The notes beneath the pieces are model-generated. The model worked only from the letters and a program-made list of their open reading frames with translations, searched no databases and was not told the DNA's origin. From an uncultured Actinomycetota bacterium (GTDB lineage: Bacteria; Actinomycetota; Actinomycetes; CAVWCF01), in NCBI GenBank assembly GCA_963753435.1, contig CAVWCF010000001.1, positions 1,280,001 through 1,344,000 on the forward strand: a stretch of 64,000 bases of DNA. The letters run 5' to 3'. Position numbers and translations under genes: made by a program. Positions 17,739 through 50,562 of the stretch are shown here, in pieces; within the stretch, counting starts at the first letter, position 1, and every line of letters starts with the position of its first letter.

Positions 17739-18067
17739 GCGGTCTCGCGCGGCAGCACGATGGTGTGCGGCGCCCGCTGCCTGGGCACGCTTCGCTCGTA
17801 CTCGTCCTTGGCCGACATGAGCAGTTCGCGCCAATCGTCCACATCGGGGCGGCGGCGCAGCAACGCCCGTCGCTCACGCTCAGTCATGCCGCCCCAGACA
17901 CCGAACTCGATGCGGTTGTCGAGGGCGTCAGCCAGACATTCGGTACGAACCGCGCAAGTCATGCACAGCGACCGGGCTCGGTTCTGCGCCGCACCCTGTA
18001 CGAACAGTGAATCCGGATCGGTCCCCCGACATGCGGCCCGCGCCGTCCATTCCGCCGCCAAATCCAT
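17708..18067 (-). CDS. whiB4: WhiB-family regulator WhiB4/WblA
   Basis: Four Cys, LFVQGAAQ, EFGVWGGMTERERR; divergent from ponA2. Confidence 0.92.
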   Translation of the reverse strand: MDLAAEWTARAACRGTDPDSLFVQGAAQNRARSLCMTCAVRTECLADALDNRIEFGVWGGMTERERRALLRRRPDVDDWRELLMSAKDEYERSVPRQRAPHTIVLPRETAQVRASASPT

Positions 18068-47815: not shown

Positions 47816-48346
47816 TCAGCGGGAGTAGACCGGCGCGATAACCGCACGCGCGAGCGTGTGGAAGGTCAATTGAAAGCCGACCGCGGCGGCGCGCGCATCC
47901 CTGCCGACCCCCAGTGACTCACTGTCCACGGCGTGTACGGCGAACAGGTATCGGTGCGGGCGGTCGCCCGGCGGTGGGGCGCTGCCGCCGTATCCGCCGT
48001 TGCCGAAGTCGGTTGGGACGTGGAAGGCCCCGGCTGGCAGTCCACCGCCGTCAGCAGCACCGGCGCCGCGCGCCAGCTCGGTGACGGAAACCGGGATGTC
48101 GACTGCGAGCCAGTGCCACCAGCCGCAAGCCGTCGGCGCATCCGGGTCGAAGCAGGTCACCGTGAAGGACCTCGTCGCCGCCGGGAAGCCAGACCAGGCC
48201 AGATGCGGGGACTGGTTGCCACCGTCAAGGACGAACTCCTGGCCCAGTTGTGCGCCGTCGACAACGTCGTCGCTGACAACCGAGAAGGCGCCGACCGGAG
48301 GGAGCAGTTCGTAGGGGTTCGGTGCCACCGGTCGCTGCAGATTCAC
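47816..48346 (-). CDS. YbhB/YbcL (PEBP/Raf kinase inhibitor-like) protein
   Basis: DPDAP..GWWHW, YGG.APPPGD.PHRY; GGAGG RBS. Confidence 0.93.
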   Translation of the reverse strand: MNLQRPVAPNPYELLPPVGAFSVVSDDVVDGAQLGQEFVLDGGNQSPHLAWSGFPAATRSFTVTCFDPDAPTACGWWHWLAVDIPVSVTELARGAGAADGGGLPAGAFHVPTDFGNGGYGGSAPPPGDRPHRYLFAVHAVDSESLGVGRDARAAAVGFQLTFHTLARAVIAPVYSR

Positions 48347-48361
48347 CTAGGTCCTCCCGCA

Positions 48362-48568
48362 ATAGGTAGCGGGGCCCCTCCACGTATGAGGTGCAGGGGC
48401 CCCGCTGTGCCGGATCTCCGGCGGTGAGTTGGGCTTGCGCCCGCTCTTCCGCCCGAGGCCGCGGCCTCGGCTGACGCGAACCCTGCGGATAACCGTCCGG
48501 GTTTCCCCGGAGGTTCCCCCTCACCGTTCCGACCTAAGTCTTCTGGTGCGGTCCCGCCGTCAGGCGAT
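48362..48568 (-). ncRNA. Putative structured ncRNA, copy 1 (unnamed)
   Basis: TTGCGT-N18-TAGAAAT promoter pattern; CGGUGAG/CUCACCG closing stem enclosing GAAA and GCAA tetraloop hairpins; 3' hairpin with CUCAUAC loop; ends inferred. Confidence 0.55.
48368..48406. repeat. Palindromic hairpin copy 1 (loop GTATGAG)
   Basis: AGCGGGGCCCCTCCAC-GTATGAG-GTGCAGGGGCCCCGCT. Confidence 0.9.
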
Positions 48569-48636
48569 GGGAGATTTCTAGGGGCTACCGGTCGATGCAC
48601 GCAAGGGGTCCGGAACAAGAAATTCCGATGAATCTC

Positions 48637-48713
48637 GTATCCACACTCTTGTCCACACGGCGCCTCGCATGTGGCATTGGTTCCTCCACATCGAGCCCAC
48701 AGCGTCATCAACA
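48637..48713. promoter_or_regulatory. DnaA-box-like cluster
   Basis: GTATCCACA (48637), TTGTCCACA (48649, actinobacterial consensus), TCCTCCACA, GAGCCCACA, TCATCAACA. Confidence 0.6.
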
Positions 48714-48807
48714 AGCGGGTCGTACTCGGTTCGGCGTCGATCGTGACGAGACGCAGGCACCGTGTGTCGCTGCCAGGTTGGTCAAGCCGGTGCGGGCATT
48801 CTGATCC

Positions 48808-48842
48808 CCAGGCCCCTCCAGGTATGAGCTGGAGGGGCCTGG
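48808..48842. repeat. Palindromic hairpin copy 2 (loop GTATGAG)
   Basis: CCAGGCCCCTCCAG-GTATGAG-CTGGAGGGGCCTGG, perfect 14-bp stem. Confidence 0.9.
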
Positions 48843-48869
48843 CTAGTCCGCAACTCTTACCCTGCCGTT

Positions 48870-49829
48870 GTGAGCAATCTCGAGTCACGCCCGGCGGAGA
48901 CCGACTGCCACAGCGACGCGACCGGCGCTGCGGAGACTCTGGCTCCACGCGAGGTGCCGCTGGGTGGACCGCGAGCACTGACCGTTCGCCGCACCCTTCC
49001 CCACCGTGACCGTCGCATGGTCGGGGCTTGGTGCTTCGTGGACCACTACGGCCCGGACTCGGTACACGACGGTGGAATGTTCGTTCCCCCGCACCCGCAC
49101 ACGGGACTGCAGACCGTTTCGTGGTTGGTCTCCGGTGAGGTGCTGCACCACGACAGCCTTGGTTCCGAACAACTGATCCGACCAGGCCAGTTGAACCTGA
49201 TGACGGCCGGCCGTGGCATCGCACACGCCGAGGTGACACCGGCCGGTAGCACCGAGCAGTTGCACGGGGTGCAGTTGTGGGTGGCCCTACCCGGCACCGC
49301 CCGCGACACCGCCCCCGCCTTCGAGCACCACGCCGAACTGCCGACTGTGGGCCTGCCCGGGTGCGTGGCCACCGTCATTGCCGGCGATTTCGCTCGCGTG
49401 CAGTCGACGGCCACGACGTTCACCGACCTGCTGGGGGTGGAACTCGACCTCGCTGCCGGGGCTGACCTGGACGTCCCAGTTCGGCCCGAACACGAGCACG
49501 CTTTGCTCGCGCTGGATGAGGACGTGGCGATCGGAACGGCAACCGTGCCCCGCGGCGCCCTGCACTACCTACCCCCGGGGCCGGATGTGATTCGAGTGCG
49601 CAGCCGGACGGCATCCCGGGTGCTCCTGCTCGGCGGGCTTCCATTCGACGAGACCGTCGTCATGTGGTGGAACTTCCTCGGCACCGATCACGACTCGATC
49701 GCCGCTGCCCGTAAGGACTGGGAGGCAGCCAGCCCACGGTTCGGCGAGGTGCCGGGATACGACTCCCGGCTGGCTGCACCCGCGTTGCCGGGGACCCGGC
49801 TCAAGGCCAGGGGCCGAAAGCGGAACTAG
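48870..49829 (+). CDS. Pirin family protein
   Basis: VRRTLP, WCFVDHYGP, PHPHTGLQTV, MTAGRGIAHAE, QLW, MWWNF. Confidence 0.95.
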   Translation: MSNLESRPAETDCHSDATGAAETLAPREVPLGGPRALTVRRTLPHRDRRMVGAWCFVDHYGPDSVHDGGMFVPPHPHTGLQTVSWLVSGEVLHHDSLGSEQLIRPGQLNLMTAGRGIAHAEVTPAGSTEQLHGVQLWVALPGTARDTAPAFEHHAELPTVGLPGCVATVIAGDFARVQSTATTFTDLLGVELDLAAGADLDVPVRPEHEHALLALDEDVAIGTATVPRGALHYLPPGPDVIRVRSRTASRVLLLGGLPFDETVVMWWNFLGTDHDSIAAARKDWEAASPRFGEVPGYDSRLAAPALPGTRLKARGRKRN

Positions 49830-49858
49830 ATAGGAAAAGCCCAATCACGCCCGCTCAA

Positions 49859-50030
49859 CAAAAGGTAAGGCCCCTCCAAGTATGAGTTGGAGGGGCCTTA
49901 CTTTCGCGGCTTGCGCCACTGCTTCCGCTTCCAATACCCCCTGGCCGGATCCCTCCGGGCCGAGGCCCTTCCGGTTCTTGCCAGTCCCTTCAGCCGAGGC
50001 CTTCGGGTTTGGTGCACCTTCCGAGGAAGT
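49859..50030 (-). ncRNA. Putative structured ncRNA, copy 2 (unnamed)
   Basis: TTGCCC-N18-TAGAAAT promoter pattern; shares GCACCA, GGCCUCGG, GCGGAAG-N4-GGCGCAAGCC and the terminal CUCAUAC hairpin with copy 1; U-rich tail. Confidence 0.55.
49865..49901 (-). terminator. Palindromic hairpin copy 3 (loop GTATGAG), intrinsic terminator-like
   Basis: GTAAGGCCCCTCCAA-GTATGAG-TTGGAGGGGCCTTAC, 15-bp stem followed by CUUUU on - strand. Confidence 0.85.
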
Positions 50031-50098
50031 AGCCGATTTCTATCCCCTGCGGCGGAGGTAGGGCAAGACCTTTGGAGCAAGTTCTTGCTCCCGACGGG

Positions 50099-50163
50099 AA
50101 ATCCCCAATGTCATACACAGCAATCCAGGGCATATCCCCATCATGTCCACAGCTTGATGCACA
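50099..50163. promoter_or_regulatory. Degenerate DnaA-box-like cluster
   Basis: AAATCCCCA, TCATACACA, ATATCCCCA, ATGTCCACA, TGATGCACA, mostly 11-12 bp apart. Confidence 0.45.
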
Positions 50164-50206
50164 AGTCAGCGCTCAACCGGCCTGATCGCACTGATCGGAA
50201 CGCGAG

Positions 50207-50242
50207 GTGGGCCCGAACCAGCGTTAACTGGCTCGGGCCCAC
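50207..50242 (-). terminator. Hairpin downstream of the 100-aa gene
   Basis: GTGGGCCCGAACCAG...CTGGCTCGGGCCCAC. Confidence 0.6.
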
Positions 50243-50259
50243 TCGGAGTCTGCAGTCGA

Positions 50260-50562
50260 CTACTTGGTCTTGGTCACTGAGGTGAACGCCCCCGTGACTA
50301 GCGTGAAACCGTCCTTGGCGACCTTGACGCTGCCCGCCGCGATCGAGTCGATCGTGCCGGTGATTCCGGTTGCCATCTTCTGGGTGCCCTCCCGGACACC
50401 GTCGGTGGTCTCAGCGGAGACGCCCAGGCCCGACAGGACCGTGAACGGGATCTCCATAGCCGCCAGGCCGGTCTTCTCGACCGCCCCCATGCCCTGACGG
50501 AAGATTCCTAGGAACGCCTGGTCGGCGCTGGTGCTGCTCTTCTGCTTCGTGCTGGTGGCCAT
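50260..50562 (-). CDS. Hypothetical 100-aa amphipathic Gly/Ala/Thr-rich protein
   Basis: Strong RBS AAAGGGAGGTGG before ATG; GC3-biased codons; own terminator. Confidence 0.8.
   Translation of the reverse strand: MATSTKQKSSTSADQAFLGIFRQGMGAVEKTGLAAMEIPFTVLSGLGVSAETTDGVREGTQKMATGITGTIDSIAAGSVKVAKDGFTLVTGAFTSVTKTK

Follow-up and report, generated by a model that had tools for sequence, protein, structure and literature searches.

We analysed a 64,000-nt stretch of the genome of an uncultured Actinomycetota bacterium (assembly GCA_963753435.1, contig CAVWCF010000001.1, positions 1,280,001 to 1,344,000), hereafter the window; the host genome is 2.17 Mb, has 68% GC and is 98% complete. Sequence comparison identifies two minus-strand units, U1 and U2, as copies of one conserved gene for a folded non-coding RNA, with no entry in the RNA catalogues. 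Between them lies a third copy of their terminal hairpin, which, read with a WhiA-motif promoter on the opposite strand, predicts a short antisense partner RNA. The initial annotation of this DNA described a pair of paralogous non-coding RNA genes; the two units stood, while the third hairpin at 48811-48840 and its opposite-strand promoter module were missed. The features of the locus are as follows.

50151-50143, 50140-50132 and 50107-50099, minus strand: DnaA-type box cluster of unit 2, from the box sequence; putative binding sites
50036..50066, minus strand: putative promoter of the unit 2 long RNA (TTGCCC, 18 nt, TAGAAAT), from the motif match
49857..50030, minus strand: long RNA U2, predicted length ~173 nt, the start placed at an A 6 nt past TAGAAAT
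49862..49904, minus strand: 3' hairpin of U2 with the loop CUCAUAC and a U-rich tail after it, resembling an intrinsic terminator, from the sequence
48870..49829, plus strand: pirin gene (Pfam Pirin, Pirin_C) flanked by the modules; a neighbouring gene outside the family
48809..48845, plus strand: predicted short partner RNA, a single hairpin with loop GUAUGAG; both ends predicted, the 3' end uncertain
48811-48840: third hairpin copy, between both units, from a repeat search
48764..48802, plus strand: predicted short-RNA promoter, GTGTC at 48764-48768 (WhiA motif; GACAC on the minus strand), 28 nt, -10-like CATTCT at 48797-48802
48657-48649 and 48645-48637, minus strand: DnaA-type boxes of unit 1, from the box sequence
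48574..48604, minus strand: putative promoter of the unit 1 long RNA (TTGCGT, 18 nt, TAGAAAT), from the motif match
48360..48568, minus strand: long RNA U1, predicted length ~205-209 nt, from the fold and the model R1 score
48366..48408, minus strand: 3' hairpin of U1, loop CUCAUAC, from the sequence
47816..48346, minus strand: YbhB/PBP-family gene (Pfam PBP) downstream of U1; a neighbour, not conserved

The unit coordinates and motifs of the initial annotation were correct. TTGC-N20-TAGAAAT matched only twice in the genome, at 48604-48574 and 50066-50036, and GCGGAAG-N4-GGCGCAAGCC was confined to the two units. The terminal hairpin occurs in three copies in the genome and no more, the third having a loop, GUAUGAG, that is complementary to those of U1 and U2. 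Both units folded better than all 200 shuffles (z -5.5 for U1 and -4.0 for U2) and contain no ATG, and an Rfam 15 scan of the window gave no significant match (best E 4.1). One correction to the proposed paralogy is that the bodies of the two units resemble each other only weakly, with a local score of 25 that 12 of 500 shuffles attained.

A hairpin scan of 11 of the 64 parts of the GTDB collection led to 122 fetched loci, and the family is estimated at about 750 stretches in the whole collection. The locus titles all named Actinomycetota except one "uncultured bacterium". Carriers comprised Streptosporangiaceae, Frankiaceae, Jatrophihabitantaceae, Nanopelagicales, Phycicoccus, Pedococcus, Longivirga and others, including the cultured Longivirga aurantiaca CGMCC 4.7317, Phycicoccus sp. 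Soil802 and Pedococcus sp. NPDC057267; the Longivirga genome carries two sites. The hairpin pattern matched 13 of 60 related genomes, and model R1, built without the window sequences from the 40-unit alignment described below, matched 47 of 121 genomes of the class (the unpublished genome G024 is counted in the 60-, 121- and 301-genome denominators used here and below and among the 46 genomes of the promoter search, and G256 among the 301; neither underlies any statement on sequence).

The alignment was made from the 150-170-nt class, which numbers 56 units: 40 were included, and the 16 that visibly differed in subtype were left out. Double-sided changes were found in 30 of 38 predicted pairs and 92.9% of cells were paired, values reached by none of 500 shuffles, with 35-53% paired in slid controls; the consensus structure was derived from the same alignment on which it was tested, which favours the structure. 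Model R1 scored U2 at 59 bits, U1 at 50 and the third hairpin at 48, so that most of the score comes from the 3' hairpin. The membership of U1 and U2 follows from boxes, promoter and hairpin taken together, their bodies being divergent, also from each other. Across the family, the body is composed of GNRA-capped hairpins (336 of 541 predicted loops were GNRA) and varies from about 110 to 850 nt, and tandem arrays occur. A closed open reading frame (ORF) of at least 15 aa with a Shine-Dalgarno (SD)-like motif was present in 12 of 109 long units and a hydrophobic stretch in two, and no ORF was conserved among them. We are highly confident that the long unit represents a genuine gene for a structured RNA; the earlier suggestion of a multicopy, uncatalogued RNA family was borne out by the covariation among homologs.

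Covariance-model searches against Rfam returned a single tRNA for 16 loci and a single neighbouring cobalamin riboswitch for nine. Literature searches with the hairpin string and with combined terms found no paper on the family, although subscription papers and the supplement of PMC5737381 lay outside their view and an unnamed candidate motif there is possible. No gene neighbourhood was shared beyond lineage level (the largest ORF cluster covered nine loci), and the 130 flanking proteins of the relatives included no pirin and one PBP-family member; a conserved ybhB-pirin context is not supported. The sequence motifs that the initial annotation had listed as common to the pair were likewise local, GCACCA occurring in 13, GGCCTCGG in three and GCGGAAG-N4-GGCGCAAGCC in two of 115 units. 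Four look-alike hairpins, L203-L205 (from 7-9-Mb genomes) and L206, had neither promoter nor WhiA motif and were not counted. In L005, L006, L022 and L187, the long RNAs reach 750-860 nt, in several cases through hairpin modules of ~45 nt expanded in tandem.

The searches yielded 159 distinct hairpins, 141 with the loop CTCATAC (AC type) and 18 with CTCATGC (GC type), one of these loops having been demanded by the search. The family promoter, TTG(C/T)NN-17/18-TA(G/C)A(A/C)(A/C)T, lay upstream of 115 of the 159, with a spacer of 17 or 18 nt in 114 of 114 and a promoter-to-hairpin distance of mostly 156-166 nt (maximum 854 nt). DnaA-type boxes preceded 72 of the 90 promoters with enough flank; 177 were in forward and 11 in reverse orientation, with peaks at -80/-90 and -130 to -150, against a genome background of 0.04 per counting window. 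The earlier suggestion of DnaA-type boxes upstream of U1 and U2 is supported by the fixed position and single orientation of the boxes across the family. Although this genome has 10 promoter-like matches to the family pattern, only the U1 and U2 promoters had such boxes upstream. The actinomycete high-affinity DnaA box is described as TT(G/C)TCCACA (PMC4285127), with which the unit 1 box at 48657-48649 agrees perfectly; the family boxes are mostly relaxed at two positions. The clustered boxes upstream suggest that the long promoters are regulated by DnaA. A generic sigma-70 scan detected no promoter. When the promoter alone was searched for in 46 genomes lacking a strict hairpin match, two of the five matches were family members.

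The same box type is found upstream of dnaA in this genome, 90 kb away. DnaA-box clusters outside oriC are known, and the present boxes resemble them in being clustered away from the origin but differ in their fixed register upstream of an RNA promoter. Further clusters of DnaA-type boxes away from the dnaA region, none of them accompanied by the family promoter, were seen in G000 at C1:539632-539686, C1:1404504-1404676 and C5:198972-199103.

Behind 48 of the 159 hairpins, a GACAC site starts at +36 to +45. Among hairpins with full flanks, it was present behind 46 of 146, compared with 1.1 in control windows and one on the mirror side. Read on the opposite strand, the module consists of GTGTC, 27-28 nt, and a CANNAT-like box ending ~7 nt before the hairpin, the 27-28-nt spacing being kept in 31 of the 48; the site extended to GACACGC in 36 and to the full GACACGCC in 16. 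GACAC is the motif of WhiA (PMC3781837, PMC10243135), given as GACACGCC for M. tuberculosis (PMC13473873), and GACGC was also footprinted by WhiA (PMC3781837); the latter variant is present in the lineage with the loop CTCTTGG. A GACAC(GCC) motif beside a promoter would fit regulation by WhiA/WhiB. The module was fused to a long unit in 26 of the 48 cases and stood without a sense promoter, as an orphan, in 22. Orphans had more A just before the hairpin, which reads as a U-tail from the opposite strand (P 0.001; 28 vs 127). G-U wobbles in the long units favoured the sense strand (27 vs 2; 127 hairpins) and those in the GACAC orphans the antisense strand (9 vs 3; 18 hairpins). In four of four genomes whose known long units had no module, the second sites were orphans with GACAC at +40 to +43, as predicted.

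By the order GTGTC, CATTCT, hairpin, the third hairpin of the window is such an orphan module, and it would give a ~35-45-nt RNA with the loop GUAUGAG. We consider it quite probable that the short RNA exists and pairs with the long RNA. In L025 and L082, partial duplications of hairpin arms lie between the WhiA-motif promoter and the orphan hairpin, so that the predicted short RNA is longer, with the motif-to-box spacing kept. In L029, L045, L046, L061, L064, L069 and L108, a conserved non-coding motif (GGCGTGGGTACCCCCGAGC core) was observed 100-200 nt behind the hairpin, near dapA and beside the WhiA site, which may also serve a divergent transcript.

Orphan modules on other contigs or at least 100 kb from any long gene retained promoter, spacing and loop while their stems diverged. 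Among the 46 genomes behind the fetched loci, 29 had at least two family sites, which by eye were all-AC in 20 and all-GC in nine. We then considered 39 multi-site genomes, hand-picked, with not every site fetched and with modules classified by GACAC position: 38 had one loop type, 31 a short module (exactly one in 28), and 21 a module split from the long gene. In 26 split long/short pairs, the variable loop base formed A/U in 18, G/C in seven, G·U in one and A·C in none; the G·U pair was in G317, where a GC-type long unit accompanies an AC-type short one. The GC/GC state belongs to family f16 and also to G314 and G323, which have other stems and neighbours; it probably represents two events, not seven. 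A search of 301 genomes with the loop left unconstrained found many with two unlinked sites of different stems and the same loop, flanked as one long gene and one orphan module. This search also revealed true members with wholly different loops, TGCCTAG, CTCTTGG, CTCGTAC and CTCCTAC, the first three in fused units (six of six read for TGCCTAG and one of one for CTCGTAC), where complementarity is automatic. Unrelated terminators caught by the same stem pattern had random loops. The wholly different loops speak for mutual recognition of both RNAs; neither mimicry of tRNA-Met nor an mRNA target that stays fixed would agree well with them. The predicted duplexes were -66 and -69 kcal/mol, compared with about -60 to -65 for the separate hairpins. 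Long genes were present in one to three copies per genome read, whereas the short module was usually single.

The comparison provides the family, its strand, a covarying fold, fixed promoter and box positions, a second promoter module, and loop complementarity when the genes are unlinked, from which we infer transcription of both RNAs and binding of DnaA and of WhiA/WhiB. In the model that we somewhat favour as a whole, the replication initiator DnaA would activate U1 and U2, and a tiny opposite-strand RNA would be transcribed, under WhiA/WhiB control, from the hairpin that separates them. The CUCA U-turn of the long RNA would start a kissing complex with the loop of the short RNA, which would extend to a ~30-bp duplex, a likely RNase III substrate, and the short RNA would thereby silence or destroy the long RNAs. 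The long RNA would be the effector, probably protein-binding through its expandable GNRA-capped hairpins, and the pair would switch between a replication-initiation and a division state. The least secure parts of the model are its direction of control and its output. The genome carries whiA, four whiB-family genes, dnaA and RNase III.

More tentatively, the pair may form an RNA-only cell-cycle switch, in which DnaA induces a multivalent protein-binding RNA, WhiA/WhiB at division commitment induce a ~35-nt kissing hairpin that destroys it, and the split genes co-evolve a seven-base code. As regards the coupling of replication initiation and division in actinobacteria, WhiA/WhiB2 were only recently tied to both processes through protein-coding targets (PMC13473873). 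An RNA pair wired to DnaA boxes and a WhiA motif would, if real, add an RNA layer to this control, and would illustrate how a cis sense/antisense pair turns into a trans pair, with the G·U intermediate visible in one genome. The cultured carriers make the proposal directly testable.

Several observations weigh against this proposal. The loop covariation concerns one base and probably two independent events, one lineage has near-identical stems, and shared ancestry or gene conversion could contribute to the loop match. By the strict rule, eight of the 39 multi-site genomes had no module, two of them having a displaced one. The short module was found in 21 of a 40-genome set chosen mostly for its apparent absence, a few of these being loose or chance matches, and was not found in three genomes with the loop CTCCTAC or in Phycicoccus sp. 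Soil802, whose long form is ~800 nt; some of the missing modules may be due to incomplete assemblies and to variants of the motifs, yet pairing may not be universal. The short module of the window has no U-tract and could read into pirin. The -10 element of the long promoter has its T at position 7, compared with position 6 in the usual consensus TANNNT, and may denote a distinct promoter class. The RNA contigs described below are unstranded, and for neither RNA was a target found among proteins or mRNAs. According to PMC3781837, WhiA is a repressor in about as many cases as it is an activator.

Two rival readings come next in probability. In one, which we consider unlikely, the direction is reversed, the short WhiA-driven RNA being the effector and the long, stable DnaA-driven RNAs its sponges. 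This would agree with the multicopy long genes and usually single short module, and the short RNA has a CCCCUCC arm complementary to SD sequences; that arm, however, is locked in a -30 kcal/mol stem, each long RNA offers one complementary loop despite an elaborate covarying body, and the complete loop change in some lineages is hard to fit to a fixed mRNA target. In the other, the RNAs do not pair at all: the hairpin would be no more than a strong terminator for both directions, WhiA would block the way of the polymerase or interfere with transcription, and the loops would match by descent or gene conversion. A convergent promoter could indeed interfere in fused units, as reported for ryeA/sdsR (PMC6610125), and there were only about two covariation events. 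We nevertheless regard this as rather improbable, as distant orphans keep promoter, spacing and loop while their stems diverge, interference is impossible for modules on other contigs or at least 100 kb from long genes, and terminators of the same stem pattern have random loops.

The loop itself resembles the anticodon loop of tRNA-Met (CU-CAU-RC) and might mimic it or read AUG start codons, being 7 nt long with a central CAU and A or G at the purine 37 position (141 and 18 of 159), and the three CAU tRNAs of this genome have CUCAUAA. Since the loop-agnostic search finds members with the four other loops, and the 18 GYATGAG start candidates in the genome showed neither a common function nor longer pairing, we give this little probability. 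We doubt still more that the palindrome and its asymmetric 7-bp spacer serve recombination or integration of DNA, as a loxP/att-like site with pirin as the integrated cassette, even though its 11-13-bp inverted arms have almost pure Watson-Crick symmetry, such a site would require spacer identity within a genome, and pirin is flanked by two same-direction copies. None of the 130 flanking proteins was an integrase, recombinase or transposase (E 1e-8); the strict pattern had no match in viral contigs, and phages and plasmids gave 30-40-nt chance matches only; wobble polarity tracks promoter direction, and the arms change symmetrically within one genome. A sponge of the CsrB/RsmZ type, binding a protein through GGA motifs as the initial annotation proposed, has next to no probability. 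The eight GGA per unit were confirmed, without clear enrichment (P 0.11 for U1 and a marginal 0.04 for U2), but one of eight and four of eight were fully unpaired, the family loops are GNRA, and csrA had no match in the 98% complete genome.

Among the described systems close to this one is par(pAD1) of Enterococcus, a type I toxin-antitoxin locus of the Fst family, with RNAs of ~230 and ~40 nt, convergent promoters and a common hairpin; binding begins where the loops of the two terminators are complementary, that of the long RNA forming a YUNR U-turn, as described in PMC7472228. The present pair would likewise comprise a long and a short RNA, one common terminal hairpin and loop complementarity. 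Convergent promoters with a shared hairpin occur in the 26 fused modules, the window module being separate, and the YUNR-type CUCA was in all 159 hairpins found with this loop but absent from the variants TGCCTAG, CTCTTGG and CTCCTAC. Here, however, there is no peptide ORF and there are no direct repeats, the long and short genes frequently lie apart, several long copies would share a single short module, and control by DnaA/WhiA is predicted. That the long RNA is an mRNA for a small toxic peptide is accordingly scarcely probable for all the shared layout and the tandem arrays: a hydrophobic toxin ORF with an SD was not found, U1 and U2 lack ATG, and the length of the long unit varies freely.

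RyeA/SdsR of E. coli are opposite-strand non-coding RNAs with reciprocal regulation, mutual degradation and different transcription inputs, according to PMC6610125. The pair described here would likewise comprise two opposite-strand non-coding RNAs with different inputs, its pairing being predicted. SdsR, an mRNA-targeting small RNA (sRNA), is contained entirely within RyeA, whereas the complementarity here is limited to one terminal hairpin and persists in trans. By analogy, the pair may work like RNA I/II of par(pAD1) and RyeA/SdsR, yet it would fall outside type I toxin-antitoxin systems, CsrB, Ms1 and every Rfam family. Ms1/6S RNAs of Actinobacteria are structured RNAs of 180-300 nt with their own promoter (PMC9130861), and a protein ligand is plausible here as well; the present family differs in its multibranched body of GNRA hairpins in place of a long stem with a central bubble, and in having no fixed gene order. 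As the initial annotation held, the units are unlike Ms1, and the genome had no RF02566 match. 6C RNA (RF01066) is also an actinobacterial sRNA with a C-rich hairpin sequence, but the C-run here is in the stem and not the loop; the genome has a weak 6C match at another place.

Six of 20 runs were metatranscriptomes, and small shares of all six were examined as contigs. Parts of U1 were covered in four (48366-48668, 48499-48811, 48452-48619 and 48338-48511) at a depth of 2-6, unstranded and with DNA carry-over possible, whereas the U2 body had no cover in the six. The pieces ran past the predicted start or end of U1, and coding neighbours were covered too.

Some minor features were also recorded. 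The -10 form TA(G/C)A(A/C)(A/C)T stands at 48574-48580 of the window and in L188 and L192, and some short-RNA promoters have it likewise. A looser hairpin pattern matched one AT-rich viral contig (L263, around position 1500), with a CTCATAC loop and a T7 tail but no promoter or body, probably by chance. Besides the YbhB/PBP and pirin genes, the locus has as a neighbour an unannotated 100-aa ORF (50260-50562, minus strand) immediately upstream of unit 2. This ORF has a strong SD but matched nothing in Pfam; it is followed by its own hairpin near 50205-50245 and was partly covered by RNA-library contigs of four studies. A TACCCT lies 6 nt ahead of the pirin GTG (48858-48872, plus strand), suggesting that pirin has a promoter to itself and a leaderless mRNA. 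A WhiB-family gene is located inside the window at about 17861-18049 (minus strand), 30 kb from the RNA locus.

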